A DNA stretch of 64,000 nucleotides from the NCBI RefSeq assembly GCF_035594765.1, contig NC_085843.1:51010201-51074200 (forward strand). The letters run 5' to 3'. This document shows, one piece after another, positions 6,992 to 62,919 of this stretch. Each line of letters starts with the position of its first letter. Within the stretch, counting starts at the first letter, position 1. The DNA is from Anolis carolinensis (Eukaryota). Made by a program: the position numbers and the translations under genes. The notes below the pieces were generated by a model. That model was not told where the DNA came from and ran no database searches. It saw nothing but the letters and a program-made list of their open reading frames with translations.

Positions 6992-7696
6992 TTTAGTGTT
7001 CTTAGCAATCTTCCTAGTCTATGACCCTGACAGTATCCATGATGGCACCACCAGATCCTATTAGCCACCTAAGAAGTGTCATTTCATCAGTTCCTGACAC
7101 TGTTGGGTCACAACAATCCTAAATTTTAGTAAGGTTGGAGTTGGAATTGGATTGCTGGTGCGGATCCCACTGAAAGAAGAGTTACATTTTGAGCTAGGAT
7201 TCACTGGATGTTGTAGTTAACTTTTCTAAGCTCTAGGAAAGATATTTCATACCAAGGAGGACTGTGACAAAGTGGCAGAGGAAGGTCATTCTGGAAGAAC
7301 AATCAATCATGGATTACGTTCACAGTTGGAGAGTCACATTCAGATGTCTGAGCTAGATGATAGGATTTCCAAACTGTTGGCTTGGCCAGATTTCAAATAG
7401 TTTTTAGGTTTGCCATCTGGTGCCTGTTTGTACCATCATCTGCCCCAGATTCCAAGATTTCTTCTCTTCCACCTTAAAAAAAAAACCAAGCCTCTGCCAT
7501 AGTATAGTTGTGGGGCAAAGCGTGCAATTATGTTTCTTTCCAATTTCCAGTTATGTTTCTTTCCAGTAGTTTTGTGAGAACTGTACTTTGCACTTAGCTG
7601 GTGAGTGAGGTCTCACATCTAGCACTATCAATAACAATAGAAAGTGCATTAGTCCAAACATGACTTGCATATAACCCAGGAAGCAAGGGAGCTGAG

Positions 7697-8081
7697 CAGG
7701 ACCGGCCCCACCATGGAGGCCACGTGACGCCGCCGCCTCGGGCGCAGGTCCCGGGGGGCGCCGTCAGGCTGGGCGGGAGGCGGGGCACCGCTCTGACGGT
7801 GCCCCGCCGCCCGACCAGTGCGCCCTGACCTTGTGGCCTGGCTGGCCTTGCCCAGGCTCCCTCTTTCGCCGCCCGGTAAGGGGAGGAGGGATCCCATCCT
7901 CCCCTCCCCGGGCGGGGAAGGCTCCCTCTTTCCAACCCTGGCCCCGCCTCCCACGCTGCGTGGGAGGCGGGGCCAGGGCGAATAGCATGGGAGGCGGGGC
8001 CAGGGCGCAGGAGGCGGGGCCGGCGGGGGGCGCTTTTCAGCACCCCCGCTTAATATTTAAATTTATCTCCGGCCGGCCCTG
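7697..8081. mobile_element. GC-rich non-autonomous hAT element (MITE)
   Basis: TIRs caggaccggcc / ggccggccctg; perfect 8-bp TSD GAGCTGAG at 7689-7696 and 8082-8089. Confidence 0.85.
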
Positions 8082-8525
8082 GAGCTGAGGCATGGCAACA
8101 GTGTGGCGTGAGGCAAGGGAGGTGAAAAGAGGAAAGTTATAATGAGAGATTATCCCGGCCAGGGAAGTTGCTGTGGTGGTGCTCTTTTCCACCCACCGTC
8201 TTCTACAGGGCTCCTTCTTCCCAGGGAGCCCTGCGCTGTGTGCTCACGGTGAGTATTGGGATGACCAGTCAATCAGGGGCAGGTTCCTCCCTGCACTCTG
8301 CTTGGCTGCTGCAGGTTGACCAGAGGTCTGCCTGCTGCACATATAAGAAGGCATCTAGGCTCTCCCAGCTCAGTTGCCTTCAAAGCTATCCCCATCTTCC
8401 TGCCCTCTAATTTGTTAACTTTGTTGATATAGTGTGTGGTTGCTTCTTTCTTTGTATCTTCATGTTAATTTGAGGACAGTTGGCATGGGCCCTGGATCCG
8501 ATATATGCATCACCCCCATGTCCTT

Positions 8526-8560: not shown

Positions 8561-11402
8561 TGGTCTGCAATGTGGCTGCTAGCGGGTGTGGTGATGCCAG
8601 TGTCCTAGGGCAGAAAGAACTGAAATCTGCACTGTGCCTCCTGTTGTCTTCCTTGGTGCATCAGTCAGTAGGAGGCTGTCCGATACCTTGACCCATGTGT
8701 GGCTGCCAACCCTGTTTTTATTTGTAACTAATAAGCAGGTTATGGCCTTTGGTTATCCCAACAGCATGTGTGAGACTGTTTCTTACAGTCGGTGTGTGTG
8801 TGTGTGTGGGGGGTCGCTATTGCCCACACAATTGTAGGGGGTTACAAGGAGGAAGACAGGTATAAGATGATGAAGTGTGCAGGAGCGTTGAACCAAGGTA
8901 AAGTAATGAGGGAAGAAAGGGTAGGAAATGGAAGAAAAAAGGGAGGAAGCATGGTGATGGTGCAAACTGAGACAAGGAGGACAAAGGCACAGCTGTGGAG
9001 TGAGAAATTATAAAGGCAAGAGAAGAAGGGAGGGATGCAGTTAGAGTCTGCAAAGAACAAGATAAGTACAAGGTGAAAAAATACAATGGAAGGAGGTGTG
9101 CTTTATAAGTTGACCCCTGTTTTCCTCTGCATTTTCACTTGGGTCTCAGATGAATCTACCTTTTTTGCCATTGGTGAGAAAACTGACAACTATATAAGAA
9201 GAGGGTGGAGTAGCACTAGAAATGTCTGTGCATGATGATTTTTTTTACCACATTAGACATATGTATGGGTACTTTACCCAGTTCCTGTCCAGCTATTAAT
9301 CTCCACAACAATGCCATAAGCTCTATTTGCTGAAAGGGAGTGTTAGCTCAAGGTCATTCAGTTACTAAACAAGAATTTGAAATTGTATTTTTCTGGTCTA
9401 GGTTCAGTACTACGAATATTGCTCTATAAGTTCCTTCAGAAATATTATTTTTAAAAAATGGTATTAGGAATGAAATATACTAATGGAAAATACACTTAAT
9501 ATGTCATGATCAGCTTAGATAGTGAGGATGAGGAGTTGCTAAGGGCCAGCAGAAGAGATGGAGGTTAGCAGCTCACAGCAGTCTACTGAGCCTAACTCAG
9601 AAGCAAAAAACAAAAACAAAAACAAAAAAAACAAAAAACAACTCCTCAGCAGCTGATATCTGAAGATAAAAAACCCTGAGTGTTGTGACTCTTTTGCATC
9701 TGACAACATTGTTATCTAGCTTGAGTCCAGTGCCTGTTTGCTCTCTTCTTGGGACCTGACTCTGCTGCTTCTCAGTTTACCACTCAAGGATTTCTGGCTT
9801 CAACTTCTGGTAATCTGATTTCTGGCTTTGGCATCTTTGTTTGAAGTGTGCATTTCTGACTCTGGACTGGACTTTTGGATATTCCACTGCTTTCTTTTTT
9901 ATTTTTAAATTTACACATTCATAAAAAAAAACACAATACAAATCTATACAATCTATACACAACTTTTATTTTATTTTTAAAGATACTCTACTGCTTTCTA
10001 AAGACTCTTGTAATTGACATTTCTGACCATGGACTGTTGACCTTGAAAATTTCAGTGAGTTGGTTTTGGATTTTGTTTCTACATTGTGTCTCTGACATGA
10101 TGGTGCCCCTAAGTAATAATATGGCTGTCAGTTGTCAATAATAACCATTGTGTGATAAAAAAAGAATAACCCTGAAATGCCTTTTTAAAGTTATGAATCC
10201 ATAGAGATGAAATAAAAAGAAGTGGGAAACAAGTACCTCATGAAAAACAAAACCCAGAGTTTTTTCATGTAGAAAAATACATTGTGTAGAAGATGCTGGA
10301 TTCTACACAAAAAAAACCTATTTGCATTGTTTTGTACAGGATATATCCCAAATTGCAGTCTGCAAACTGTGCAGTTTTGATTAATTTTTCATAGTGAGGA
10401 GAAAAAAACAAAACTAAAACTTCTCTTTCTTACCTATGAGAACAAAAAATATGAAGACTTACATCCTTAATTTAATCATCATAGATTAGCTGAATCTTGA
10501 ATGCTAAAGTGCTCTCTTGACCCAAGGAATGTAATTAAGTCTCCATTATACATTATCTGCTTGGATTCTTTCTAACTGTACTCTTCCACTTTACTCTTCT
10601 TTTTAATGATATATTTAGAATATCTATTGTTAGGCTAGGAAAGCCCTGCTGACTATTTTTCTTTAATAGCAGCTTCAAACTTTGCAAGTGAGGCAGCACA
10701 TCAGCTACATTTCTGCTTTATAAAAAGCTGGTTTGTTTTTGAGGAAATACATAACAAAATCAACTATTAGTCTGAACAATATTCATGGGTCAACAGAAGG
10801 AGACATCAGAACTGCATTGACAAAAAGGTTTACAATCAATCATCTTTTTAAAAAGATGACAGCTTTCTGAATCATCATGCCCAGTTGTTTGCTGGGGAAT
10901 TCAGGAAATCTGGATAATATGTAGTCCAAAAACCTTTCAGGCTTTGCTTATGTTATTGAAGTAAGAAGGATTTAGATATTTTATAACATACGTGTTGTCA
11001 CATGTGTTTTATTGATTTGTTCTCATGATTGTTACAATAATTGTCGTTTTAACTATCTGCATTTAATTTATATGTATTTGTATTTTTACTGTGTATTATA
11101 TGTCATTGTATGGCTGCCATTTATGTTGTAAGCTGCCCTGAGTTCCCAAGGGGAAATGGGATGGGGTATAAATAAAGTTGACTTGACATGATACCTAGAT
11201 AAAACTGGAAAATATATATTGTCTGCAGCTACTAGTAGTGTTAATGCAATAATCATATCATCTTAGTAAAGCCTCTGGATATTTTGCATCAAACAATAGT
11301 GTATCACCCCCTTCCCCAAGTCAATTCTGTCTTATGATGAATCCCATCATAAAGCTTTACTGGAAAGCTTTATTCAGAAGAAGTTGGCCACTGCTCACTT
11401 AT

Positions 11403-12317
11403 TGTGATGACTCATGGGCCATGTAGTCCCGTTCCTAGTGCTGTTGTGACAGATGAAGAGGAAAACTTGGGTTTTCCACCATTTCAGCCAGAAAAGGAAC
11501 TTTCCCAGCCAGAAATGGAGCCCTTGCACCTGCAGGAGGTTTGTCTTCCAGAAATCTGCCAAACAAGCCCTGAGTCAAAATCTCCCCCTTTTTCTCGCCG
11601 TAATTATTATCTCCAGCAAAAAGGAGTGCAGCAGGCTAATCGCAGGAGCTTGAGAATTGCAGCAAAGCATTCAGATGATTAAGCCTGCTTCCATGAGAAA
11701 TTTTAGGGAGTCATACATCTGGACACAGAGATTGACTTTCATTTCTGATTCCCCAGAGAAGTGTTCTCTGGTGGGAAAACGAGGCCTATTTAGGTTCCTT
11801 GCTCCCGAAGGAATCTTGCGGAGTCAATTCGTCAGCTACCGGAGCAGCGTGTGTGGACAGCTACTCCTGCTCTCAAGCCTTTGTTCCTGTTCCAAGCCTT
11901 CGTTCCCAGCCTTGTTTTCTCCCCGGATCTTGCCTTGTTTCCCGGACCTCGCCAAGTAATTACCACGGATCTTGTTCTTGCTCCTCGTTTCCTTGTTGCC
12001 TTGAATCAAGCTTTGTGTTCCAAGAATCAAGTTACTTTCTAGCCTTGCTCAAGTTCATGGACTAAAGGACCTTGTCATCTCCCCTCACTTTGCTTGGCAA
12101 AGTGAGTGTTTCGGTTATTGGATTACAACTTTGGACCTTAATATTTCATATTGGACATTGTTTCTTGGGACTAATTTTGACCTTTCCTGAAAGGTCTATT
12201 TCTGGACTATTTCATACACTTGCTTTTATTAACTTTATATATTCCTTCAATAAAGATATTAGATAGATTCTGGCCTCTGTGTATGGTTATTGGTGCTCTG
12301 CAGCCTGGGTTGTGACA
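11403..12317 (+). repeat. 5' LTR (915 bp)
   Basis: TGTGATG...GTGACA; direct repeat of 16792-17706; AATAAA at 12249-12254. Confidence 0.97.
11787..11827 (+). promoter_or_regulatory. LTR promoter: TATA-like box and predicted TSS/self-primer GCGGAGTCAA (11818-11827)
   Basis: TATTTA lies 31 nt upstream of the motif; the related solo LTR has TATATA 30 nt upstream of the same motif. Confidence 0.65.
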
Positions 12318-12319
12318 GT

Positions 12320-12329
12320 TTGACTCCGC
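12320..12329 (+). promoter_or_regulatory. Primer-binding site of the self-priming (Tf1/sushi) type
   Basis: TTGACTCCGC lies 2 nt after the 5' LTR and is the exact reverse complement of LTR 11818-11827; it has no TGG start of a tRNA PBS. Confidence 0.8.
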
Positions 12330-12359
12330 CGCCCTAAGCACCAATTAACCTAGGCCAGA

Positions 12360-13346
12360 ATGTCTACCGGAACCGTGCCGGGTGGCCAGCCACTCAGCTA
12401 CACCATCGACAAGGACGAAGTGGACCGCATCCGTGACAAGCTCAATGCGCAGGATGGGGAAATAAGGGGTTTGAAGGAGCGCGGAATCCGTCTCCCGGCC
12501 ATGGCGTTGCCAACCAAGTTTTCTGGAGAAGCTTCTAAGGTTCATGTTTTCCGTCGCCAATGCCAGGCTTATCTAGAGGCCCGTGCTGCCGAGTTTCCCC
12601 AAGAAGACATCAAGGTGGCGTGGATTTACAGTCTCCTAGACGGGCCAGCGGCCAACTGGGCGACGGCACTGTTCGACCAAGCCTCCCCACATCTAAGAAC
12701 AGCGCAACACTTCTTGGACCACCTTAAGGCGACTTGGGGGATCGAGGACAATTTGGAGGCAGCCGGCCACAAACTCCGGCGCCTCTCCCAAGGAGACAGA
12801 CCCTTGTCCCAGTACATAGCCGAGTTCCGAGTGCTGGCCCATAACACCGGCTGGAACGATGTAGCCCTCAGAGGACAATTTCGGGAGGGTCTCAACATTG
12901 AGATGCTGGAGGAAATCTCCAAGGTGGATCCTCCACACTCTCTTGAAGCACTCATTGATCAATGTTTACGAGCTGAAGTCATGCTTGCCAACAGAAAGCA
13001 ATGGATCCGAGGCCAGAGCGGTAGGGCTGGAGCGAAACCTCCCGCTCCCACCGGCGTCCAGCCGCGTCCTGTGCGGAGACCCCCGCCACCAGCCCCATAC
13101 CCCAGAGGAAGCGAGGAGGTGCCAATGCAGTTGGGCAACGTGTGTCCCAGACTAGATGCCGCCGAGCAGGCCCGCCGCCAACGCCTAAATCTCTGTTGGT
13201 ACTGCGGAAACGGGGGCCACTTTGCCAGAGAGTGTCCAGCCAAAGGGAAGCCCGCCGCTCGTCTGGCAGCGGCGTCCTCCACGGAGACGAAGACATCTGA
13301 GGCGGCTGGCGCGCAGCCGGCGGGGGAAGCCAGCGACCGGGCGTAG
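12360..13346 (+). CDS. gag: Gag (328 aa), PEG10/RTL-like capsid with CCHC zinc knuckle
   Basis: PTKFSGE and QGDRPLSQYIAEFR capsid motifs; CWYCGNGGHFAREC knuckle. Confidence 0.95.
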   Translation: MSTGTVPGGQPLSYTIDKDEVDRIRDKLNAQDGEIRGLKERGIRLPAMALPTKFSGEASKVHVFRRQCQAYLEARAAEFPQEDIKVAWIYSLLDGPAANWATALFDQASPHLRTAQHFLDHLKATWGIEDNLEAAGHKLRRLSQGDRPLSQYIAEFRVLAHNTGWNDVALRGQFREGLNIEMLEEISKVDPPHSLEALIDQCLRAEVMLANRKQWIRGQSGRAGAKPPAPTGVQPRPVRRPPPPAPYPRGSEEVPMQLGNVCPRLDAAEQARRQRLNLCWYCGNGGHFARECPAKGKPAARLAAASSTETKTSEAAGAQPAGEASDRA

Positions 13347-16300
13347 AGAGGCTCGCCAACCCGGTCAAAAACCCCACTCAAGAGCCGCCAACCGGGGTCC
13401 TATTTCTCCTAGTGGTCACCTTGTGGTCGGTGAAAAAAGGACCCGTCATGGTCCATGCCATGATAGACTCAGGAGCCACAAACAATTTCATTGACAGAGA
13501 GTATGCCGACTCTCTGGGATTACAATATCATGATTTCAAGAACGCCCGTGTGGTGCAAGCCATCGATGGCCGCCCCCTCAAGACAGGTCCAGTAAGCCAG
13601 TGGTCGGAACCCACCAGAATGTGGATAAGGGAACACATGGAAGAGATTTCCTTCTTTGTTACCGAGGTACCCCACTTCCCTGTGATTTTGGGAATTCCAT
13701 GGCTGACACTCCACGACCCAAGCATCTCCTGGTCCAACAGAGAACTGCAGTTTGCTTCAAAATATTGCCAAAACCATTGCCTTGTAGCCAAGGTCTGCCA
13801 TGCCACAGACGCTGAACCCATCATCACCTTGCCCAAGAAGTACTCAGAATATTGGGATGTATTCAATGAAAAGGAAGCCGAGAGGCTACCCCCTCATAGA
13901 CCTTATGACTGTGCCATTGACTTGGTGGAGGGGGCCCCGATCCCGCGAGGACACCTCTACTCCCTGACTGAACCAGAGCAAGAAGCTCTCAGGGAGTTCT
14001 TAGAGACAAACCTCCGCAAGGGGTTTATTAGACCCTCTCAATCCCCAGCCGCTTCCCCAGTGATGTTCGTGAAAAAGAAGTCAGGGGACCTACGCTTGGT
14101 GGTGGACTATAGAGCATTGAACAATATCACTAAGCGAAACCGGTATCCCCTGCCTTTGATCTCGGACCTCTTAGACCGGCTTCGAGGGGCTAAGGTTTAC
14201 ACCAAACTGGATCTTCGAGGAGCTTATAATCTAGTCCGCATCAGGGAAGGGGACGAGTGGAAGACTGCCTTCCAGACTAAATTCGGTTTATTCGAAACCC
14301 TGGTCATGAATTTCGGTTTATGTGGAGCTCCCGCAACGTTTCAACGTTTTGTCAACGATATCTTTCAGGATTATCTAGACCGGTTCTTGATCATCTACCT
14401 GGACAATTTTTTGGTGTTTTCTAGATCGCAATCAGAACATGAGAACCACGTCAGAATGGTGTTACAACGATTGCGGGATCATGGACTTTATGCCAAGCTG
14501 GAAAAATGCGCTTTTGATCTACAAGAGGTAGATTTCCTGGGTTATCGTGTCTCGCCACTAGGGCTCACCATGGACCCGGCCAAGGTAGCGGCAGTATTGG
14601 AATGGCGGGCGCCAACCAACAAGAAAGAGGTGCAACGCTTCTTGGGGTTTGCGAACTACTACCGCAAGTTCATTCCAGACTTTGCCCGCTGGTCTGACCC
14701 AATCACCAGCTGCATCCGTGGGAAACAGCCCTTCCGCTGGACAGACCAAGCAGAGAAAGGGTTCCAGCAACTAAAGAAATTATTCACGTCCCAGCCAATC
14801 CTTCAGCACCCAGATCCTGAAACCCCTTTTGTCGTGCAGGCGGACGCCTCCGATGTGGCGATTGGGGCTGTACTCCTACAACCAGTGGGAGATCATCTTC
14901 ACCCTTGTGCTTTTTATTCCCGTCAATTGACTGCACCAGAGAGAAATTACACTATTTGGGAAAAGGAACTTTTGGCCATAAAGGCAGCCTTTGAAACTTG
15001 GAGACATTGGTTAGAAGGGGCCAAATTTCCCATTGAAGTCCATACTGATCATCGGAATCTAGAGCATCTAAGAACTGCCCGCAAGCTAAATCAGAGGCAA
15101 CAACGCTGGGCTTTATTCTTTGAACGTTTTAACTTCCAAATTCATTATGTAACCCCAGCCCAGACCAAGCAAGCAGATGCTCTGTCACGGAAACCGGAAT
15201 ATGCTGCAGGGCGCAAAGAGACTTTTGAGTCCCAGCTGCTACAGCCCGAGAACTTTGCCACGCTCACAGTGGGAAACACCAAATCCACTCCCATTGAATC
15301 AACTCCCTCTACTCCAGGGCCCCTTTGTGCTCAGGAAATCAGGGCTAGTCAGCAAGCAGATGCCTGGGCACAGGACCAACTTCGCCAAGGACTACATTTC
15401 CCCTTTTCGCTTAAGGATGGGCTACTTTGCTATAGAAATCATGTTTACATCCCTCCAGGACCGGGCAGGGAAAAAGCACTTCGTCTGTGTCATGACTGCA
15501 AGCCAGCAGGGCATTTCGGACTATTCAAAACCATGCATTTGATCCTAAGAGATTTCTGGTGGCCCAAGATCCGCAAGGATGTGGAAAAATATGTCAACAC
15601 CTGCCCAGTATGCCAGCGCTCCAAGACAAGAAGGGAAAAGCCCTCAGGGCTTCTGCATCCCCTCCCTACCCCATCTCGCCCATGGGAAATAATCTCTGCG
15701 GATTTTATCACTGATCTACCACCTTCCTGTGGATTCACCACGATCCTAGTGGTGGTGGACCTTTTTACCAAGTTAGCCCATTTCATTCCCTGTGATGGCC
15801 TTCCCACGGCCAAAGAGACTGCAGATTTATTCCTTCAACATGTCTTCAGATTGCATGGATTGCCCAAGAGTTTGGTCACAGACCGTGGGTCCCAATTCAC
15901 CTCTCGTTTCTGGAAAGCACTACAAAAACTATTGGGCATAGACTCTCGTTTATCTTCGGCTCACCATCCCCAAACGGATGGGCAAACTGAGCGTACCAAT
16001 GCCACTTTGGAACAATACCTTCGCTGTTATGTGAACTACCAGCAGGACAATTGGGCTTCCCTGTTACCGCTGTCAGAGTTTGCCTACAACAATGGGGTCC
16101 AGGCTTCAACTAAAGAAACCCCGTTCTTTGCAAACTACGGCTTCCATCCACGTTTCTTTCCTCCTGTCATTGAAACCTCAGAAGTTCCCGCAGCAGAGGA
16201 CTGGCTGCAGGAACTCACAGCGGTGCAACAACTTTTGCTCCAGCAACTGGACCAAGCCAAGGAGGACTATAAACGCCACGCTGACAAACATCGCCAGCCG

Positions 16301-17071
16301 GGCCCCGAAATCAAGGTAGGAGACCGGGTTCTTCTGTCCACTCGCTTTTTGCCCTCCCACCGCCCTTGCCGGAAGTTAGATGCCCGTTTCATTGGCCCCT
16401 ATCCAGTGGTGGCGCAACTTAACCCCGTGACTTTCAAACTCCAACTTCCGCGCTCTATGCGCATTCATCCAGTGTTTCATCGCTCCCTGCTCCTTCCGGC
16501 GGATGGTGTGCGCCCTGATGCAGACCGGCCGGCCCCCACTCCTGTTTTGGTGGATGGGGAGGAGGAATTCGAGGTTCAGGACATTTTGAATTCTCGCTTT
16601 CACCGCCGCCGCCTACAATATCTCATTGACTGGGTGGGTTTTGGCCCCGAGGAACGCTCTTGGGAAGACGCTTCCACAGTCCATGCCCCCGATTTAACCC
16701 GCCGCTTCCATCAGACCTATCCCGCCAAGCCGCGGCCTCGCGCCTCGGGGAGAGAGTCCCAGTTTGAGAGGGGGCTTGAGGAGGGGGATAGTGTGATGAC
16801 TCATGGGCCATGTAGTCCCGTTCCTAGTGCTGTTGTGACAGATGAAGAGGAAAACTTGGGTTTTCCACCATTTCAGCCAGAAAAGGAACTTTCCCAGCCA
16901 GAAATGGAGCCCTTGCACCTGCAGGAGGTTTGTCTTCCAGAAATCTGCCAAACAAGCCCTGAGTCAAAATCTCCCCCTTTTTCTCGCCGTAATTATTATC
17001 TCCAGCAAAAAGGAGTGCAGCAGGCTAATCGCAGGAGCTTGAGAATTGCAGCAAAGCATTCAGATGATTAA
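13301..17071 (+). CDS. pol: Pol: protease, RT, RNase H, integrase, chromodomain and U3-encoded tail; -1 frame relative to gag
   Basis: Frame is open from 13301 (after TGA at 13298-13300); motifs IDSGA, KLDLRGAY, YLDN, QADAS, TDH, H-H-CPVC, ADF/TDRG/TER, GPY and a chromodomain; last 93 codons lie inside the 3' LTR. Confidence 0.95.
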   Translation, partial: GGWRAAGGGSQRPGVERLANPVKNPTQEPPTGVLFLLVVTLWSVKKGPVMVHAMIDSGATNNFIDREYADSLGLQYHDFKNARVVQAIDGRPLKTGPVSQWSEPTRMWIREHMEEISFFVTEVPHFPVILGIPWLTLHDPSISWSNRELQFASKYCQNHCLVAKVCHATDAEPIITLPKKYSEYWDVFNEKEAERLPPHRPYDCAIDLVEGAPIPRGHLYSLTEPEQEALREFLETNLRKGFIRPSQSPAASPVMFVKKKSGDLRLVVDYRALNNITKRNRYPLPLISDLLDRLRGAKVYTKLDLRGAYNLVRIREGDEWKTAFQTKFGLFETLVMNFGLCGAPATFQRFVNDIFQDYLDRFLIIYLDNFLVFSRSQSEHENHVRMVLQRLRDHGLYAKLEKCAFDLQEVDFLGYRVSPLGLTMDPAKVAAVLEWRAPTNKKEVQRFLGFANYYRKFIPDFARWSDPITSCIRGKQPFRWTDQAEKGFQQLKKLFTSQPILQHPDPETPFVVQADASDVAIGAVLLQPVGDHLHPCAFYSRQLTAPERNYTIWEKELLAIKAAFETWRHWLEGAKFPIEVHTDHRNLEHLRTARKLNQRQQRWALFFERFNFQIHYVTPAQTKQADALSRKPEYAAGRKETFESQLLQPENFATLTVGNTKSTPIESTPSTPGPLCAQEIRASQQADAWAQDQLRQGLHFPFSLKDGLLCYRNHVYIPPGPGREKALRLCHDCKPAGHFGLFKTMHLILRDFWWPKIRKDVEKYVNTCPVCQRSKTRREKPSGLLHPLPTPSRPWEIISADFITDLPPSCGFTTILVVVDLFTKLAHFIPCDGLPTAKETADLFLQHVFRLHGLPKSLVTDRGSQFTSRFWKALQKLLGIDSRLSSAHHPQTDGQTERTNATLEQYLRCYVNYQQDNWASLLPLSEFAYNNGVQASTKETPFFANYGFHPRFFPPVIETSEVPAAEDWLQELTAVQQLLLQQLDQAKEDYKRHADKHRQPGPEIKVGDRVLLSTRFLPSHRPCRKLDARFIGPYPVVAQLNPVTFKLQLPRSMRIHPVFHRSLLLPADGVRPDADRPAPTPVLVDGEEEFEVQDILNSRFHRRRLQYLIDWVGFGPEERSWEDASTVHAPDLTRRFHQTYPAKPRPRASGRESQFERGLEEGDSVMTHGPCSPVPSAVVTDEEENLGFPPFQPEKELSQPEMEPLHLQEVCLPEICQTSPESKSPPFSRRNYYLQQKGVQQANRRSLRIAAKHSDD
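13322..13386 (+). promoter_or_regulatory. Candidate -1 ribosomal frameshift signal (G_GGG_GAA, stem-loop, possible pseudoknot)
   Basis: Gag/pol overlap is limited to 13301-13346; 6-nt spacer, then stem GACCGGG (13335-13341) / CCCGGTC (13360-13366). Confidence 0.6.
16559..16723 (+). other. Chromodomain coding segment of integrase
   Basis: EEEFEVQDILNSR...QYLIDWVGFGPEERSWE...FHQTYP. Confidence 0.92.
16766..16791 (+). promoter_or_regulatory. Polypurine tract
   Basis: gagagggggcttgaggagggggatag directly abuts the 3' LTR. Confidence 0.85.
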
Positions 17072-17706
17072 GCCTGCTTCCATGAGAAATTTTAGGGAGT
17101 CATACATCTGGACACAGAGATTGACTTTCGTTTCTGATTCCCCAGAGAAGTGTTCTCTGGTGGGAAAACGAGGCCTATTTAGGTTCCTTGCTCCCGAAGG
17201 AATCTTGCGGAGTCAATTCGTCAGCTACCGGAGCAGCGTGTGTGGACAGCTACTCCTGCTCTCAAGCCTTTGTTCCTGTTCCAAGCCTTCGTTCCCAGCC
17301 TTGTTTTCTCCCCGGATCTTGCCTTGTTTCCCGGACCTCGCCAAGTAATTACCACGGATCTTGTTCTTGCTCCTCGTTTCCTTGTTGCCTTGAATCAAGC
17401 TTTGTGTTCCAAGAATCAAGTTACTTTCTAGCCTTGCTCAAGTTCATGGACTAAAGGACCTTGTCATCTCCCCTCACTTTGCTTGGCAAAGTGAGTGTTT
17501 CGGTTATTGGATTACAACTTTGGACCTTAATATTTCATATTGGACATTGTTTCTTGGGACTAATTTTGACCTTTCCTGAAAGGTCTATTTCTGGACTATT
17601 TCATACACTTGCTTTTATTAACTTTATATATTCCTTCAATAAAGATATTAGATAGATTCTGGCCTCTGTGTATGGTTATTGGTGCTCTGCAGCCTGGGTT
17701 GTGACA
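16792..17706 (+). repeat. 3' LTR (915 bp)
   Basis: Matches the 5' LTR except one difference found (A11741 vs G17130); AATAAA at 17638-17643. Confidence 0.97.
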
Positions 17707-37196: not shown

Positions 37197-38999
37197 TCAA
37201 TCAATCAATCAATTTATTAATGCTCCGACCAATGGTCATATGCATTTACAGAGACAACATCAAACAAACATCTATACAAAACACTGTAAAATCCAACACT
37301 TAGAAGTAGGATGCAAGCAGGATAAAACAGAACATGTAAACTATACATTGTGAGGTGCAGCAGCACAAGTGCAACATGTGCTGGGAACTGCACAATTACC
37401 GGTAAAATGCCAATGTATAAGATCAGTCATTTAAAAAACATAAAAAATATCAACCAAGCATCTATAGAAATCCTATAAAATTCCACAGTTACAAGCAGGA
37501 TGCATGAAGTATAAAACAGAGCTTGCAAAATATAACCGGTAAAAAGCCAGTATAAAATATCAGTCATGTTAAAAACTAGATAAAAGCATCCCCGGCGCAG
37601 TCGATTGCAATATCCGCAATCAGTCTTGCTCTGATTTTTTTTGCTGCCAAGGTAAAGAGGGAGACCTTATAAGGAGTGATTAAGGAGTTGGTATCAGATA
37701 AAAGATAGAAGATCTTTTCTTCAACCGTGTTCGATCGTAGGTACCATAGAATAGGCCCTAAGAATTTGTGGAGTATAGAGTGCAGGCAAACAAATAGTGG
37801 GGAAGGTCCTCAATTTCTGAGGCCCCACATACACATATTCGGCTAGCCAAAGGAGTGCCCGAGTATCTACCATCCAGCACTGCTGAGGGCATGCTTTGGA
37901 ATCGTAGAGCTGTAAAAGCTTGTCTGAGGTTAGGGAATGTGAGGTTGGTTAGATACATAGCCCTTTCGTGGTCGAATTTGTATAATTTGTACCATGTTGA
38001 GAATTTGGAGCTGTTAATAGCCTGTCTGTCCATTTGAATACCTTGGTTATAAATGTATTCATGCAACTTCTCTCTTGAACTCAGGATTGAAAGCTCATGA
38101 GACAGGGTAGGGTATATTTTCAGCAATTCCTGATGTTTGAGCTCCATACTTTGCATTCAGATAGATGTTCAAAGCATAGCTTTGGGAAAACCCTAGCTGA
38201 GGAATCCTTTATGATTCTCCGATAGTTGTATAGGGAGAAGTGAATGCGGGATCTTATGGAGGGTAAACCAACCTCTGCTCTGACCAAGGCTGCTGGAGTG
38301 CCAGGTGGGAGTCTTAGCAGTTTCTTAAAGAATGTATTCTGGATGGCCTCCAATTTTGGTATCTGTGAATCGTCCCATCCCCAGACTGGGGCGCCGTACA
38401 GAATCTGGGCAATAACTTTGCTCTGGAATATTTTCAGAGCTGGGGCAACCAGATGGCCCCCTGCTGTATTATAAAATCTGAGGATTCCTCCAATAGATTT
38501 TAGTGCCACTTCTCTGCTATGTTCTATATGGGGCTTCCATGATAAAGTCTCTGAAAAATATACACCCAGATACTTAAATTCCCTGCATTGTTCAATCTGA
38601 TGGCCACCAATGGACCATCTGAACTGTGAGTGTCTTTTTCCGAACACCATCACCTTTGTTTTATTATAATTGATGTTCAGCTTTTCTTTGGAGCAGTATA
38701 TGCCCAGTTTAGTAAGTAGCCTTCTTAGACCTATTTGGGCAAATGAGACTAACACCATATTCATCTGCATATAAAAGAGCAGAAATCTTCTTTGAACCTA
38801 CTGAGGGTGGGAAGAATTCTGGACCTGAAAGCGCTGTTATTATATCATTCAAGTATAAATTAAAGAGTGTGGGTGCCAGCAGACAGCCTTGTTTTACTCC
38901 TTTCTTGATGTGAATTGCATCAGTTAGTGAGCCAGAGGTGCCAACTCTTATTCTAGCTGTGGTGTCAGAGTATAGTGCCTTAATAAGAAACAACAGGCG
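37197..38999 (-). mobile_element. 5'-truncated non-LTR retrotransposon (RTEX-like), frameshifted RT and C-terminal Cys/His region
   Basis: GVKQGCLLAPTLFNLYLND, LLYAD, FKYLGV, CVCG...EDLPHYLFAC; AATAAA plus (ATTG)n tail; 13-bp TSD TTTTAAAGAATTA at 37184-37196 and 39000-39012; clade assignment less certain than the element itself. Confidence 0.85.
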
Positions 39000-39928
39000 T
39001 TTTAAAGAATTAAGTATTGTAACTTGTCCAGACAGAAAATAATGACTCAAACATAGGATGGTACTAAAAAAAGTAGATTTGAATTATTAAGTGAAGCTGT
39101 TTTTTAATACAAATTTTATTACGTGCAAAAAGAAAGAAAAAAAAACAGCAAAGGGAGTACAAATAAATGAGATTTTTGTAACATAGAACACTAAAACTAC
39201 TACATCTTAAAAAAACTAAAAATAAGACAAACACATAAAGGTTCCACCTACATATATTAGTATACGGATACTAAACAAACGACCACTGAAACTTATTTAT
39301 GAATCTCACACTCATTGTTGATTTTTAACCTTCATTATCCTACTCTTTTTAGATAATACAGGTGAAACATTTAGCTTTTCCTCTCATGAACATTTAATCC
39401 GGATTTTAAAAAAGTGTTTTATGTCAACAGAACAGCATTATTTTCTTTTAAAAATAAACCTTGTGTCCAACTAAAAACATTTTATCCTAATTTTCCATCA
39501 AAAAAAAAAGAATTGATATGTTAGGAGTAATTTTTAAGTAGAACGAATTGTCATTAGTTGCCACAAAGCCTTACTCACTTTTCCACCACTGGAAACTATT
39601 TTTAAATTGTGTATATCTGTTTTTGCTGATTATTTTATTAAAATACAGTTGAATCCATCCTCTTTCTTTAAAATTAATTGTCTAATGTTCAATGTCCCCT
39701 TTGAATTATTTTAATCGTGTCTCTTCATAAAAACTTCAAAGCATTTGTGTCCACATATTTTCCTTTGTACAAATCAAAACTCTAAAGATGGCAACTTTTG
39801 CAAACAAATGATAAAATGTTCAGCTATGCAAATACAATAAAATCTCAAATATAAATACCTTGAATGCATGTTCAGTTTTCCATGCAATGGTGGCGGTGAC
39901 TGAGACTTATTTAAAAGCATGCTGTCTT

Positions 39929-40620
39929 TAGAATCATAGAATCATAGAATCATAGAATAGTAGAGTTGGAAGAGACCACATGGGCCATCCAGTCCAACCC
40001 CCTGCTAAGAAGCAGGAAATCGCATTCAAAGCACCCCCGACAGATGGCCATCCAGCCTCTGCTTAAAAGCCTCCAAAGAAGGAGCCTCCACCACGGCCCC
40101 GGGGAGAGAGTTCCACTGTCGAACAGCTCTCACAGTGAGGAAGTTCTTCCTGATGTTCAGGTGGAATCTCCTTTCCTGTAGTTTGAAGCCATTGTTCCGT
40201 GTCCTAGTCTGCAGGGCAGCAGAAAACAAGCTTGCTCCCTCCTCCCTATGACTTCCCTTCACGTATTTGTACATGGCTATCATGTCTCCTCTCAGCCTTC
40301 TCTTCTGCAGGCTAAACATGCCCAGCTCTTTAAGCCGCTCCTCATAGGGCTTGTTCTCCAGACCCTTAATCATTTTAGTCGCCCTCCTCTGGACGCTTTC
40401 CAGCTTGTCAACATCTCCCTTCAACTGTGGTGCCCAAAATTGGACACAGTATTCCAGGTGTGGTCTGACCAGGGCAGAATAGAGGGGGAGCATAACTTCC
40501 CTGGATCTGGACGCTATTCCCCTATTGATGCAGGCCAGAATCCCATTGGCTTTTTTAGCAGCCGCATCACATTGTTGGCTCATGTTTAACTTGTTGTCCA
40601 CAAGGACTCCAAGGTCTTTT
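39929..40620 (-). mobile_element. Young 5'-truncated CR1 LINE
   Basis: Uninterrupted 191-aa ORF2 C-terminus ([13 protein letters not shown]); (ATTCTATG)n tail. Confidence 0.93.
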
Positions 40621-41564
40621 AGATCTCATTGCTTAGATCTCATACTAAGAGAAAGGTGGGGTATTGAGAAGTAATTTAACGCATGCTTCCAAAATGTGTA
40701 TATTTTCTAAAGGCATGCTTACAACTATGCCCAAATTTTCACATGTACTTAAAACATGCAGAAATTGACATGGAACTGGAGAAAATGTACTTGAATAGCG
40801 AGAAAATAATTGAACCAAAATTGACATAAGTATGAAGCCTGTAAGACAAACATCCTCACCATGCTCCCTTCAGGTGAGATGTTTATAGAGCAGAATCCAA
40901 TAATATTGTATTGAAGCTAGCAAAATTTTAAATCCATCTGCATTTATGGTAGTATGTGCATGACGCTGCTCTGTTTTGTTGCGTTCATGCGCAGTCTTGA
41001 TGGGACTTGCCATATGCCATCACACAAAGCACGGCAGGTTCTGCCCACCTTCCCCCCCCCCCCCCCCCCCGTAGTGAGGAAAGCATAATGTGGGTAGCTC
41101 CGATGGGGCTAACTGCACTTTTGGCCCCAAAAGCCGATATAATGGAAGAAAGGTCAGAGAGGCAATACACGTTGCCACCCTTTCTGCCATGGGATGAGGG
41201 GTGGGAAAGAGTTCCAACGCACCCTTTCCTGCCCTCCATGTGTAATGAGGGGAGGAGGGAGGGCTCGTGGTTTACCACAAGTTGCCCCACGCATCTTCCT
41301 TTTTGTCGTCGAAAGCCGGTGAGATAGAACAGTGCAGCTGGGTCATGTGACAAGGCTCTGGGTAGTTGAAACAATTTGCTTTTGATAGTTGTTGAAACAA
41401 TACGCTTTATTGAGAAAATAATACAAAAGCAAGAACTAAACAAGCATGAGGTGGTAGTATGGAATGGATGGTCCCTGTGGCCTCCAACGCCTTGATTCTA
41501 TTCTGTTCTAGGACACCTATATCATATATCAGTAAAAGAACCAGATGATTTATTCATTAAGTTT

Positions 41565-48329: not shown

Positions 48330-50841
48330 CCGCAGGGGTGGTGGACCTATTAAGATGGTCCGCCCCAGGAGACTTATGGATCCTGAGGGATTCCTGAGGT
48401 CTCTTGGGGATCTGTCTGCCATGGAAGCTGACGATCCTGTTGATGCCTTGGTCGCTCGCTATAATAGTGAGTTGTCCAGGGCAATAGACACGATCGCTCC
48501 CGAACGTCTCCTCTCGCTACGTTGAATTGCCCCAGTTCCCTGGTTCACCGGGGAGCTGGCGGAGATGAAACGCGTGAAATGGAGACTAGAGTGCCGCTGG
48601 TGGACAACTCGTGATGTATCTGACCGAGCACGGTCTAGAGCCACTATTAGGGCCTATTCCGCGGCGTTGCGGGCAGCCAGGAAGGCTTTCTCGACTGCCC
48701 GCATCGCGTCTGCAACAAATAGATCCTCAGAGTTGTTTCGGGTTGTTGGGGAGCTCCTCCACCCTCCTCAGGCTGGGGGGGGCACCTGACATCCTGGCAA
48801 CTCGGTGTAGCGAGTTTGCTCACCATTTTGCAGACAAAGTCGCTCAGATTCGTTCTGACTTAGATGCTGGCCTTGTTGCAATGCCAGGTGAGGTAACCGA
48901 GGCTTCTGTCTGTTCGATCTTGTGGGATTCGTTTCAGCTTGTGCAGCCTGATGATGTGGACAAGATTCTTGGAGCGGTGAGGGCGACCACCTGTGCCCTT
49001 GACCCTTGCCCATCTAGGCTTTTAAAACAGGCCAGTGGTGGGTTGGTTGATTGGTTTTTGAGAATAATTAATGCCTCTTTGGGGCAGGGTAGATTTCCAT
49101 CTTGCCTAAAACAAGCGGTTGTGAGACCTGTCTTGAAGAAGGCCTCCCTAGATTCGACCAACTTGTGTAACTACAGACCAATCTCCAACCTTCCATTTTT
49201 GGGCAAGGTCTTGGAGCGGGTGGTTGCCTCTCAGCTCCAGGGATTCTTGGATGATACGGATTTTCTGGACCAATCACAGTCTGGCTTCAGGCCTGGTTTC
49301 AGTACCGAGACGGCTTTGGTCGCCTTGGTGGATGACCTCCGCAGGGAACTGGACAGGGGGAGTGTGACCCTGCTGGTTCTCTTGGACATCTCAGCGGCTT
49401 TCGATACCATCGACCATGGTATCCTTCTGGGACGTCTCTCTGGGATGGGCCTTGGGGGTGCTGTTTTGCAGTGGCTTCAGTCCTTCCTGGAGGGGCCTTC
49501 CCAGATGGTGAAGCTGGGGGACATCTGCTTGGACCCCTGGCCATTGTCCTGTGGGGTCCCGCAAGGTTCTATTCTGTCCCCCATGCTTTTCAATATCTAC
49601 ATGAAACCGCTGGGCGAGGTCATCCGGGGTTTTGGAGTTCGGTGCCATCTCTACACGGATGACGCCCAACTCTATTACTCTTTTCCACCAAAATCCAAGG
49701 AAGCCCCTCGGATACTGGATCAGTGTCTGGCCGCTGTGTTGGCCTGGATGAGGGCGAACAAGCTGAGACTTAATCCTGATAAGACAGAGGTCCTCCAGGT
49801 CAGTCGCAAATCTGATCGGGGTATTGGGTGGCAACCTGTGCTTGACAGGGTCGCACTCCCCCTGAAGGCGCAGGTCCGTAGCTTGGGGGTCCTCCTGGAT
49901 TCGGGGCTGACTCTTGAGGCTCAGGTGTCAGCCGTGGCCGGGAGGGCCTTTGCACAATTAAAACTTGTGCACCAGCTGCGACCATACCTCAAGAAGTCTG
50001 ATCTGACCATGGTGGTCCATGCCTTAGTTACCTCTAGACTGGACTATTGCAATGCGCTCTACGTGGGGCTGCCTTTGAAGACGGCTCAGAAATTGCAACT
50101 AGTACAACGCTCGGCAGCCAGGTTTCTAACTGGAGCAAATTACAGGGCACGTTCAACGCCTCTGTTTAAGGAGCTCCACTGGCTGCCATTTACCTTCCGA
50201 GCCCAATTCAAGGTGCAGGTTCTTACCTACAAAGCCCTAAACGGTTTGGGACCCGCCTACCTTAGAGACCGCATTTCCCCCTACGAACCCACACGATCTC
50301 TTCGCTCGTCGGGGGAGGCCCTTCTCTCGCTTCCACCACCCTTGCAAGCGCGGTTGGTGGGGACAAGAGAGATGGGCCTTCTCTGTCGTGGCCCCCCCCA
50401 GCTTTGGAATTTGCTCCCTAGGGAGATTAGGCTGGCCCCCACCCTCCTCTCCTTCCGGAAGAACCTGAAAACCTGGCTTTTCCGGAAAGCCTTTGATGAG
50501 TGAATTCTGTTGGTTCAAGCTGTCTGCCTACATAATAATAGACCCACTGATTCGCCTTCTTATTGTCATTATTGTCATTTCTAGTACTTTAATGACTATG
50601 TCAATTACGTAACTACCTCCCCCTGATTTGACACATTCGCCCTTTGGCCTAGACTTGTGTTTTATATCTGTTTTTAACGCTTTTTCCTGCAATATTGTTT
50701 TTATGATGGTTTTACTGATATTGTTGATTTATTGTTGTAAATTTATGTGTTTTGATTTGTTTTTATATTGTGATGTTGGGCAAGGCCCCCTGTGAGCCGC
50801 CCCGAGTCCCTACGGGGAGATGGGGGGGATAGAAGAATAAA

Positions 50842-50889: not shown

Positions 50890-51725
50890 GCAGTCATGTT
50901 TTTCTGGCTTAGTTTGTGACACAACAGAATTTGAAATATACAATAATCTGTAAACTTCTAAATAAACATTAAAATTTTGCGTGTTTTTTCTTTCTTAAAT
51001 GATTTAATCTAATGTACATTTGTTTTAACAGATGCATTTATTTTTAGTTTATTCCTGCTGTACTGTTTTGAGGGGCAATTTTTATAAGCTACCTAGGAAA
51101 TGTTCTAGATGTTGCTTGTTTTTTTTCTTTAAAGAGAAGTCATAAGCTGATTTTATCAAGCAATAATTATTTTAAAGACAACAACTTTATTTTGGGAAAT
51201 TCAAAGTTTTGTTATTGTGTATTGTGCTTAAATAAAAGGAAAACACTCAAACCCCATTTTCTAAACACTTTCAATGTTTTAAAGTCAACATTTTAGACGT
51301 TGACTTTAAAATTAAAGTCAAAATCTGAAACATAGTTTTATTAATATGTTAAATATAAATATCAGAGAAAAGGGTCTGTCTATTTTACATTTATATTCAT
51401 TATCAAATGTACTTATTTCAGAGGGATTCACACCACCCCACATAATGCTTTAGACTGCAATTCTATACATAGATATTTGTAATGCATCTTATTGAACTTG
51501 ACCTCCTTCTGAGTAGACACATTTCTCCTTTGTGGTCTCTGTGAAATGTGCATATATGGTAGTTGATGCACCTGTGCAGCAACTATCATATGTGCGTATT
51601 TCATAGATGACCACTCAAAGAAATATGGTTACAGGTAAGCAACCATCATATTTTATTATATTGTCAAAGTTCACTTTGTGCATAAAAGCTAAATGGGTGG
51701 TGGAGCCAAAATTTGACATTTTTAT

Positions 51726-52824
51726 TGTCAAAGACAATAACGCCACCAAATAGAGTACAACACAGTTTATTGAAGTTACAGAACTAAAAAATGCCCGTAG
51801 GAAACAAAGGACTAGGCAAACACTTGTCTTCAGTGTGAAAAGTAACAGAAACAGCTCCGTTTGAACTAAAACGGTTCGAAAGGATAAACCGGATTAAACA
51901 GGAGTTTAATCCGGATTAAATCAAAAGTGCTTATTTCAGCCTGGCAATTTAAACAAACAAAAGTTGGTAAACAAAGGTCAAAATGAACACAAAAAGCTGG
52001 CAGCAGATTCCTCTCTGCTACTCAAAAGCTACAGATGAGTAACTCAGGCTGTTTACTCCTCCGTGCAACGAGCGAAATCCGGGTCCAGGCACATCAATCA
52101 GGGTAACGGCGGTCAGCAGGGTCCCAATCCGGTCCAAGGTCGAAAGCCAAGTGCAGACGTCTAAAGTTCCACAAGTTCCACTGAAAGCCACAGAAGGGAT
52201 AGTCCGAGGTCGTAGTCAGTCAGTCAGTCCAGCGTCAATCCAGAGTAGGTAATTAATGTCCGTCAAAAAGACGACGGAGGTCCAAGGTATCCAGCAACGA
52301 ATCACACCCGTCTTCAGGAAGTTCCCCAACAAGAGCCCAAGCGTTCGTCCAGATTACCTTGCCCAATGCAATTAGCCATTGATCCTAAACCCCATTTTAT
52401 CCCAGTTCATAACTCCTCATCGCTGTCAGCTGCTATCCTAATTCCAGGTGCCTCATCATCATCATCCTCATCAGAGCTAAAACACCTTTGACTACGCCCC
52501 ACAGCATCCCCAGCTGTGGATCCCGCTCCATCCCTCCAGCCCGTCCATGGGTCTGATCCTGCAACCCGCCAATTGCCTCCCATGCTATCATTGCCGGTGA
52601 CACCCAAATCCTCCCTCACACGAGTCCACTCCATGTCATCCTCCTCTGAGCTAACCAACTCTTCCTCCATTCCCTCGGTAAAACCCTCAAATGAGTCTTC
52701 ATCTATTGGCTCTGCAAATAAGTCCCGGAGCCGTTTCCTTTCACGCTCCTCAAAAGAGTCTGACTCTCGAGGAGTCTTACGACCCCGTCTCCTAGTACCG
52801 GAGCCAGAAGGCTCAACCATAACA
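51726..52824 (-). mobile_element. Solo LTR (1099 bp) of a second LTR family
   Basis: Minus-strand ends TGTTATG...TGACA; 5-bp TSD TTTAT at 51721-51725 and 52825-52829; minus-strand AATAAA at 51766-51771. Confidence 0.88.
52407..52820 (-). CDS. U3-embedded acidic ORF (137 aa) with basic NLS-like clusters and a DLF-x8-FEGF motif
   Basis: Open from the LTR 5' edge, with ATG at LTR nt 5-7 as in the other LTRs; coding role is inferred. Confidence 0.55.
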   Translation of the reverse strand: MVEPSGSGTRRRGRKTPRESDSFEERERKRLRDLFAEPIDEDSFEGFTEGMEEELVSSEEDDMEWTRVREDLGVTGNDSMGGNWRVAGSDPWTGWRDGAGSTAGDAVGRSQRCFSSDEDDDDEAPGIRIAADSDEEL

Positions 52825-54040
52825 TTTATTTTAGTTGTTATCATTACTTTCTGTTATTTATCATTCCACCTAAATTAAATTGGGGCTAAAGTACAAATAA
52901 CAACATAGAGTTTAGAACACATTTTGCCAGACTAAAAATGGACATAAGGACGAGTGTCCATTCAACATGGTGCCAGTTGTTATGTCTTTGTAAAGCTATG
53001 TTCACCAATTTTTTGCAATGAGATATATTACACGTTCCTACTAATCATTTCTGAAGGGTCAGTATGACACTGTTTCCATTGGTCCCTTAATACCAGACAT
53101 GTCAGACATCCACATTCTTTCATAATTAGGGATTACTACATATCTCATCTGTTACCCATCTGTCAGAAAACCTGGCATCACTTGGCAGTGAAGGTTTAAT
53201 GAAGTCAGAGCAAAAGAAGAAAAAAACATTCACTGTAATGAAGATAGTGGGCACCTTTTCCTTTCTGGCCAAATCTGAATTGTGTGGAATCGTAAAATAC
53301 AGTACAGTCCAAACTAATATTTCGTCATATTACTGTACAATATTTTCTGTGTGAAAAAATAGTGATTACATTTCCTGTTATACCCAATCCAGTCCTATTT
53401 TCATTTCATATGGCTCATCAACAGCTTACATTTCTTGCTAATGAAAGTTTTGAAAGGGAATTCAAAGTTCTCTTTTAGGTATTAGGAGCATATCAGTAAT
53501 GCAGGAGACCAACTGCAAAATGGGTTTGCTCGCCAAAGGATTGGGAGTGAATCAGTCAGCATATTTTTCCCAAAGCAGCAGTTGCTCACATTTCTGGCCT
53601 GGAGTAGGATTCAGAGAAAGACTTTTCATCATGTCAGGTTTTTTTCTGATATCCTAACTTGAGTTTGCATTTTATACCAGGAGTCCATCTGCTTTGTGAT
53701 TTGATATCAGATCTTGCTTAGGATGGAGGTATTTTCAAGGCACAATTTTAAAGTAACAGAGGTTGTCCTAATGGGAAGACTTGTAAAATCCTGTAATTAC
53801 TTCAGTAAAACAGGAAGATAAAGCTGAGCTGCATGCTGTATACACAGTAGGACAAATCGGTCCCTATATTTATTACAACACACACATATACGGACATCCC
53901 TCCTTGTTTGCAGTTTTGACTGTTGTGAGTTTGATTAGTAGTGTAGCTGTAAAGAGGGGGATAGAGAAGATGACCTTCATCCTTGACTTATTTAAGTTGA
54001 TGCAAACTAAGTTCAAAGTGCAAAGATAGTTTGTGCCCCC

Positions 54041-61319: not shown

Positions 61320-62112
61320 TAGAATCATAGAGTTGGAAGGGACATCATGGGCCATCCAGTCCAACCCCCTGCCAAGAAGTAGAAAAATTGCATTAAAAGC
61401 ACTCCTAACAGATGGCCATCCAGCCTCTGCTTAAAAGCCTCCAAAGAAGGAGCCTCCATCACACTCCAGGCAAAGAGTTCCAATGCTTAATAGCTCTCAC
61501 AATTAGGAAGTTCTTCCTAATGTTCAGGTGGAATCTCTTTTCCTGTATTTTGAAGCTGTTGTTATGCATCCTAGTCTCCAGGGCAGCAGAAAACAAGCTT
61601 GCTCCCTCCTCCCTATGACTTCCCCTCACATATTTATACATGGCCATCATGTCTCCTCTCAGCCTTCTCTTCTGCAGGCTAAACATGCCAAGCTCTTTAA
61701 GCCGATCCTCATGGGGCTTGTTCTCCAGACCCTTGATCATTTTAGTCACCCTCCTCTGGACATATTCCACCTTGTCAACATCTCCCTTCAATTGTGGTGC
61801 CCAGAATTTAACACAGTGTGATTCCAGGTGTGGTCCGACCAAGGCAGAATAGAGGGGTAGCAAGACTTCCCTGGATCTAGACACTATACTCCTATTTATG
61901 CAGGCCAAAATCCCATTGGCCTTTTTAGCCGCCACATTGCATTGTTGGCTCATGTTTAACTTGTTGTCCACAAGGATTCCAAGATCTTCTTCATACGTTC
62001 TGCTGTCGAGCCAGGCATCCCCCATTCTGTATCTTTGCATTTCATTTTTTCTGCCTAGGTGGAGTATCTTGCATTTGTCCCTGTTGAAGTTCATTTTGTT
62101 AGTTTCAGCCCA
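61320..62112 (-). mobile_element. 5'-truncated CR1 LINE
   Basis: 211-aa ORF2 remnant MNFNRDKCKILHLG...WNSLP. Confidence 0.92.
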
Positions 62113-62919
62113 TTGAAAATTGCTGCGAGATCATTTGTATCCACTTTTTTTAAAAAAAAAAGATACGATTTTTATATAAAACACATGGAATCCCAAAACT
62201 GTGGAAATTCACACACACGCACACACATAACAAGCAAAGAGCAATACTAGTCAATGCAACAAGATTTGAGAACATCAATTTATAAATTGTGGTATATACA
62301 GATATCATGTTGCAGAAAAAGTGCTTATGACAAAAATATAAAACAAACATAAGATCAAAGATTTGTCTTCTTGTGCATTCTCCAGTTACTAGCTCTTCAT
62401 GATTCCAAAAGTTTTGTCTTGGTTGAATATATTTTGTTGATGTGGCATTTACATTCAATGCCAAATTTGTGTGTTGCATTAATCTATAGCTTACAAACCC
62501 TATATATCTCAGATTTTATATCATCTTTGAACCTAGCCAAACATGCGTAAAACTAAACATCTGGATCTGTAAATTTATGGGCTGAATTCCAATTTGATAT
62601 CAACATGAAACTTCAGTGACCTGGGTTGATTTATGACTATTTAAACCAGGTGTCACTTTGGAACTCATAGATTAGCCAACCAATACTAGTAAATCTTCAA
62701 CCTCAGATGCTTTCATTTTGTCATTTCTTAGGTTCATAAATAAGGTTGCACCATCAAATGTTACTAACTCAACCAGGAATGGTGTTCCAACATGGATTCA
62801 ATTCATAAAGCAGTTCAAGTATAACTTATAGTTGGGAGAGAGAAATATATAGGGGAAATGGACACAAGAACTTAAAAGGAGGCAAGATTCATTGGGTAGC
62901 AATTGCTAATAACTATAGA

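Follow-up and report, generated by a model that had tools for sequence, protein, structure and literature searches.

The stretch analysed here, referred to as the window, comprises 64,000 nucleotides of the Anolis carolinensis genome (contig NC_085843.1, positions 51,010,201 to 51,074,200) and holds on its minus strand a solo long terminal repeat (LTR) from a chromodomain-less family of Ty3/Gypsy retrotransposons, termed family A. [quoted passage not shown] The LTR is intronic and antisense within an EphA gene, between the ligand-binding and juxtamembrane exons. The former is present in the window, with EphA3 as best scorer when the ligand-binding domain alone is compared, while the latter lies on the same strand 116 kb past the LTR. 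With Eph exons on either side, an earlier note on this DNA, made from the letters alone, was right in placing the insertion probably inside a gene body. A chromodomain-bearing element of the window is situated ca. 15 kb upstream of the ligand-binding exon, possibly in the same gene, and therefore one intronic LTR site is uninformative with regards to targeting. Coordinates are collected in Table 1.

Table 1. Features of the window, numbered from its first nucleotide.
Feature	Position	Strand	Remarks
Solo LTR, chromodomain-less Ty3/Gypsy family A	51726..52824	-	1099 bp, TG...CA ends
Target-site duplication (TSD) ATAAA, 5' copy	52825..52829	-	Adjoins LTR
TSD ATAAA, 3' copy	51721..51725	-	Adjoins LTR
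Final 137 Pol codons (C-terminal tail of the integrase) and stop	52407..52820	-	ATG 52820, stop 52409-52407
Basic cluster RRRGRK	52776..52793	-	Possible nuclear-import or DNA-binding element
RERKRLR	52725..52745	-	Likely helix leading into the motif, judged from sequence
TIM/IBM-like motif DLF-AEPIDEDS-FEGF (DLFAEPIDEDSFEGF)	52680..52724	-	Read 52724-52680
Acidic, serine-rich remainder (SSEEDD, SSDEDDDD, DSDEE)	52410..52679	-	
AATAAA polyadenylation-type signal	51766..51771	-	Close to LTR 3' end; read from sequence
Full-length chromovirus	11402..17706	+	Near-identical LTRs, 1256-aa Pol, intact-cage chromodomain, Pol into 3' LTR
Eph ligand-binding exon	about 32.3-33.0 kb	+	
GC-rich island with short tandem copies	7594-8088		Possibly Eph gene promoter region
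Long interspersed element (LINE) reverse transcriptase fragments	48590-50503, 38120-39083, 40026-40625, 61459-62130		L2-/CR1-like by eye
Short palindromic repeats, like miniature inverted-repeat elements (MITEs)	near 28.0, 33.5, 56.0 kb		

The plus strand of the interval is ruled out as coding by its many stops, the open frame being that of the minus strand and beginning four bases inside the LTR. The earlier note had recognised this stop-free frame of 137 residues in a TSD-flanked solo LTR, leaving the strand unstated, and all the basic and acidic segments it listed (RRRGRK, RERKRLR, SSEEDD, SSDEDDDD, DSDEE) are found in the minus-strand peptide. A genome search with the LTR returned 1994 first-look candidates, and the 40 that were scored were all 99–100% identical over the first 418 bases. 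Among 30 family A loci read, the TSD is perfect in 23 and the 137-residue frame intact in 27; the linker of the motif, which has I in the window copy, has T in most family A copies. The solo LTR itself is a left-over copy and gives no sign of making the peptide by itself. When the peptide was shuffled 200,000 times, the pattern [DE][ILV][FL]-x8-FxGF arose at a rate of 1.5e-5, compared with 1.0e-3 for a looser pattern and 1.6e-2 for a bare FxGF, all patterns having been drawn up after the motif had been seen. The whole tail found no useful match in Pfam, the PDB or the ESM atlas.

Full-length copies establish what the frame belongs to. As the earlier note had proposed, it is the C-terminal tail of an integrase: Pol (protease, reverse transcriptase, RNase H, integrase and SH3) does not stop before the LTR in these copies, instead crossing the polypurine tract in one frame and entering the 3' LTR, to give an integrase with a disordered tail of ca. 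170 residues. One family A locus is a 3' LTR with 501 open codons upstream, in an element with gag and pol. A query spanning the integrase end and the tail scored 121 places, of which 29, by hand count, hold an uninterrupted frame of 1209 residues or longer. In 30/30 family A loci the frame of the integrase and SH3 extends across the polypurine tract to the tail; 26 show no stop over the portion read and 4 have a stop inside the tail. Since these loci were chosen by a junction-spanning query, the counts establish the fusion as real and common without measuring its precise frequency.

Gag followed by protease, reverse transcriptase, RNase H and integrase in that order, LTRs with TG...CA ends and a 5-bp TSD place the family within Ty3/Gypsy. 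Pfam recognises the integrase zinc finger, core and SH3 in family A Pol and no Chromo domain at E 0.1. A vestigial chromodomain, as in the Ty3 passages of bioRxiv 2021.07.27.453949, is ruled out by the SH3-to-LTR gap of ca. 33 residues, which is too short. The family A integrase is nested among chromodomain-bearing rows in a quick tree of 26 rows (SH-aLRT 82–93), and lies outside them on a long branch in a preliminary tree of 71 rows. Family A is a chromodomain-less Gypsy on the chromovirus branch and not a chromodomain carrier. The analogy that the earlier note drew with the full element of the window is a loose one: Pol also enters the 3' LTR there, but this element has an intact chromodomain and a tail that is unalignable, homology between the two tails being undetectable (E 0.78). 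The window chromovirus tail keeps DEEENLGF and ends in RRSLRI; a diverged copy at locus L177 keeps DEEENLGF and RRSARI, with the remaining tail 54% identical. We take the terminal RRSxR(L/I) to resemble the HMGN nucleosome-binding motif.

A profile search led to a 72%-identical tail, P0003, which marks a second and very young subfamily, B. It comprises 150 scored rows, all with one score, of which 60 lie in a frame of 1214 residues, and it has no chromodomain after SH3. Comparison of one A with one B copy gives a dN/dS of 0.018 for the integrase core and 0.25 for the LTR-coded tail, with synonymous differences of 40 over 90 sites and nonsynonymous differences of 48 over 321 across the whole tail. 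Codons 20–54, a window set in advance for complex prediction, show 16/22 and 8/83, respectively (pS 0.72, pN 0.097; Fisher p 1e-8). These values, the dN/dS of the tail and the low pN against the high pS in codons 20–54, therefore indicate constraint on the protein and not on the LTR DNA. RERKRLR is identical in protein between A and B despite 5 synonymous changes in 7 codons, while codons 1–19, including the RRRGRK region, are under weak constraint (dN/dS 0.85, few sites). The tail is under purifying selection between A and B, and its most conserved stretch consists of a predicted helix, basic and then amphipathic, that closes with D(I/L)F, followed by 8 acidic and Ser/Thr linker residues and FxGF.

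The motif is also kept across subfamilies, a lack of conservation having been named in the earlier note as grounds for rejecting its proposal. It is intact in 30/30 loci of the solo search, 28/30 full-length A loci under a strict pattern and 20/20 B loci; of the two misses, one is a difference in the lead-in with the motif kept and one a shortened linker. Some further sequences touch on the same tails. An LTR variant between A and B, L102, has additional bases ahead of the tail and the motif DLFAEPSDEDSFVGF. Two automated Anolis gene models, P0002 and P0279, are partly or wholly made of LTR tails and are probably prediction artefacts, P0002 being a LINE fragment joined to a family A tail.

TIMs are described as a helix, an acidic linker of 8–16 residues and an optional FxGF, the latter being particular to ligands of LEDGF and HRP2 (passages of PMC9987994). 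It is with this grammar that JPO2, MLL1, IWS1 and POGZ bind LEDGF/p75 and HRP2, and at the level of sequence the lizard tails follow it. The FxGF core is present in families A, B and C (the last an older family, described below), the linker of 8 residues with Ser/Thr, AEP(I/T)DEDS or AAPSDEES, fits the acidic linker, and the conserved RKRLRD(L/I)F aligns with KEVADIF of JPO2, its helix being modelled at a pLDDT of only ~60. Acidic Ser/Thr sites in the tail are candidate CK2 sites. The subfamily B motif, DIFAAPSDEESFEGF, has as its best PDB match the JPO2 M1 motif in 6EMO (LEDGF IBD with JPO2 M1), with 11/15 residues identical and E 0.06, in a search of 177,635 sequences with a 35-mer that gave 5 matches. 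The earlier note had set the lizard motif beside that of JPO2 for its equal 8-residue spacing; the JPO2 motif it gave is correct, 6EMO chain A reading KEVADIFNAPSDDEEFVGFR, and the 11/15 identity in subfamily B supports a close likeness.

The host possesses the candidate partner, with LEDGF-family IBD exons at three places in the genome (G000), two LEDGF exons being letter-for-letter equal to the Anolis carolinensis protein P0153. An intronless PSIP1/LEDGF sequence at L063:1474-2049 has its IBD interrupted by a stop and probably represents a processed pseudogene. The complex prediction that the earlier note had suggested, between window residues 19–54 and the P0153 IBD, scored 0.37 in three runs against 0.01 for the best control, with run contacts agreeing at 90% or more. 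It lends weak support to LEDGF binding, with a partner pLDDT of 59–60; the alignment was not used. The pass mark was reached by 51/78 solved and 2/108 mismatched pairs, and with a score of 0.60 or under by 5/78 solved pairs, a range into which every one of the 4 mismatches (of 180) that passed also fell, in a calibration without peptides. Like complexes are already in the PDB, so the pass may be memory. The JPO2-type motif pattern gave 0 matches in G000 and so has no bearing on capture from host CDCA7L.

The motif recurs beyond A and B. A DNA pattern for acidic-F-x-G-F, with the usual FEGF form excluded, matched 340 times, the reversed control 95 times. Of the 30 pattern loci read, most are members of an older family, C, in which the LTR tail carries three tandem motifs (for example DILMAPTDEDTFEGF, DILTAPTDDESFMGF and DICAEPTSSDTFVGF) with cores FEGF, FMGF or FLGF, and FVGF. 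All three are listed in 21/30 further loci, found with a pattern requiring only the second motif and making no demand on motifs 1 and 3. A polypurine tract precedes the family C LTR at four places, with an integrase upstream at three of these and the tail in frame with SH3 at two (L179 and L180); no chromodomain occurs at the three places showing an integrase. The WTRVRED segment in the acidic remainder of the window tail matches, by eye, the lead-in of the third family C repeat. At L177:650-7260 a chromodomain-family element is nested in a family C LTR and splits the tail between motifs 1 and 2.

Among 148 SH3-similar proteins, an acidic FxGF motif is found in 2, many of the others being short or chimeric models. 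Together with Podarcis muralis relatives the 2 form one clade of lacertid type, having one or two F-x8/9-FxGF motifs after the chromodomain, e.g., FGTTDDEESFEGF in Podarcis P0274. By eye, these motifs lie ahead of the polypurine tract and outside the LTR. The chromodomain of this clade is devoid of the first and third cage aromatics in 4/4 motif-bearing rows, which count as one single event. Searches with the P0053 tail gave 8 matches and with the family C tail 1, and an approximately unbiased (AU) test over 26 rows of common versus separate origin for the anole and lacertid motifs gave a p-AU of 0.47. The lacertid-type integrases P0053, P0151, P0273 and P0274 have a cage-poor chromodomain like plant type II followed by the FxGF motifs, and P0053 and P0151 share a similar LLCWKR end segment. 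Fusion to the integrase, loss of the chromodomain, purifying selection, and multiplication and recurrence of the motif are thus all observed in these elements.

To account for these features, we propose that the tail would stay on the mature integrase and bind the IBD/TND of LEDGF/HRP2, readers of H3K36me2/3, perhaps tuned by CK2. Through this contact the pre-integration complex would be anchored on chromatin occupied by these readers, where integration would be assisted or biased, replacing the lost chromodomain. Binding of LEDGF/HRP2 by the tail is probable, and the whole chain, from host-motif mimic to integration assisted or biased at H3K36me chromatin, is a serious possibility that falls slightly short of an even chance. 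In evolutionary terms, and more tentatively, lizard Ty3/Gypsy elements may have traded histone reading, with the cage lost in lacertids and the chromodomain gone in anole families A to C, for a JPO2-type mimic reaching H3K36me gene bodies. Equally tentative is the idea that a linear mimic was gained, kept and even triplicated, so that the lentiviral cofactor would be reached by an independent, host-motif route.

Several points weigh against this proposal. Retention of the tail on the mature integrase, like its binding to LEDGF/HRP2, is a step we infer. The motif segment does not differ significantly from the rest of the tail in having fewer amino acid changes (8/83 vs. 40/238, p 0.15), and the 35-mer of the window copy has no PDB match at E 10. 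Two residues before its first F, the window copy has D where the published core consensus is S/E-x-F-x-G-F (per passages of PMC7337902); subfamily B and the second motif of family C have E at this residue, and family A has D. Gene-body enrichment, which the earlier note had named as a check, did not appear in either of two rough and underpowered proxies. Sense-strand skew is real in this genome, being positive in 26/30 USP-gene loci (mean 0.064) and in 24/26 after masking. In masked 6.5-kb flanks, the mean absolute skew was 0.058 for B (15 sites), 0.056 for the chromodomain family (15) and 0.060 for random sites (9), with p 0.25, from 40 of 140 planned sites, one random site being dropped as all N. 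The small contigs C7–C20, with 14% of the bases, hold 5/121 family A and 7/124 control places, both below the 14% expectation and alike between families. Pooled anole Gypsy data from a population study fit no preferential insertion relative to recombination, in passages of PMC7561263 that pool over Gypsy and test neither gene bodies nor single families. The proxies do not support targeting and are too weak to exclude it.

These flat proxies would suit an element whose motif binds LEDGF/HRP2 without steering sites, serving to hold the integrase on chromatin, stabilise it or recruit repair or transcription partners of the readers after integration. Such a role draws on the same sequence and selection evidence as tethering, and the part of HRP2 and LEDGF in homologous recombination (PMC4797281) would accommodate it. 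It is nonetheless somewhat unlikely; random-site skew noise of 0.06 is close to the genic signal of 0.077, leaving the proxies too weak to exclude bias, and the motif occupies the place of targeting modules in other integrases. The partner could alternatively be another TND protein (TFIIS, ELOA, MED26, PNUTS or IWS1) or an unrelated acidic-aromatic reader. The pockets of TNDs resemble one another and cross-reaction is common among TIMs, according to passages of PMC9987994, the prediction tool is blind to differences between family members with LEDGF the sole partner tried, and the window copy deviates from the consensus at one position. Against this, both Phe and the Gly are constant and x alone is variable (E, M, L, V, R), in a core particular to LEDGF/HRP2 ligands, and subfamily B equals JPO2 at 11/15 positions; a different partner is judged unlikely.

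A more radical alternative is that the tail is unselected read-through into U3, shaped by DNA-level constraint on the LTR, with the motif a chance product of acidic sequence. The loose acidic-FxGF pattern does have a single occurrence in P0056, a chimeric gene model without relation to these elements (1/28 intact-cage rows), and neither Pfam nor the atlas matches the tail. However, synonymous sites of the motif segment are near saturation with the amino acids kept, family C has the motif in triplicate, lacertid relatives have it again outside the LTR, and shuffling yields it at 1.5e-5 to 1e-3. Read-through is largely refuted by dN/dS and is very improbable. Tethering through LEDGF/HRP2 is the reading carried into the comparison below.

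If correct, this reading would identify the host factor by which a Gypsy element of a vertebrate is targeted. A 35-residue peptide in existing JPO2/MLL1 assays allows a direct test, and the genome offers at least 60 near-identical young insertions alongside a chromodomain-bearing control family. A full-text literature search, covering titles and the starts of abstracts, found no TIM or IBM described in a retrotransposon integrase, and motif-scan tables in supplements could bear on this.

The tail is encoded in frame at the integrase C-terminus, as are integrase targeting domains that tether to host factors. Chromoviruses, such as the window element at 11.4–17.7 kb, share the Gag/Pol layout and an integrase ca. 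45% identical, and the families are placed among them in the tree, but chromoviruses carry a chromodomain after SH3 while families A, B and C do not. To our knowledge, the BET-binding motif of murine leukaemia virus (MLV) integrase is not LTR-encoded. In that integrase, too, a short motif in a flexible tail engages a chromatin reader of the host, with a bias in integration as the result (passages of PMC5053271), the reader differing in being the extra-terminal (ET) domain of BET proteins at acetylated promoters and enhancers. An LTR-encoded motif in place of a chromodomain is already known from plant CRM group A chromoviruses as the CR motif (passages of PMC3059260 and PMC6317226). The CR motif, compared here by description, is linked to centromeres, whereas for the lizard motif a specific reader of transcribed chromatin can be named as the candidate partner. 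With the host TIMs and IBMs (JPO2/CDCA7L M1 in 6EMO, MLL1, IWS1, POGZ and DPF3a) the lizard motif has in common a helix with a bulky hydrophobic pair, an acidic Ser/Thr linker of 8 and FxGF; it differs in sitting on a mobile-element integrase and in D for S/E in the window copy, the likeness being one of sequence. LEDGF/p75 is known as the lentiviral integration cofactor, and lentiviral integrase shares with the proposal a host cofactor and its chromatin context. It binds LEDGF through a folded catalytic-core dimer and the N-terminal domain, not a linear FxGF (passages of PMC5053271), while the lizard element is a Ty3/Gypsy one; a vertebrate retrotransposon copying a short host motif would thus represent a second, independent route to LEDGF.
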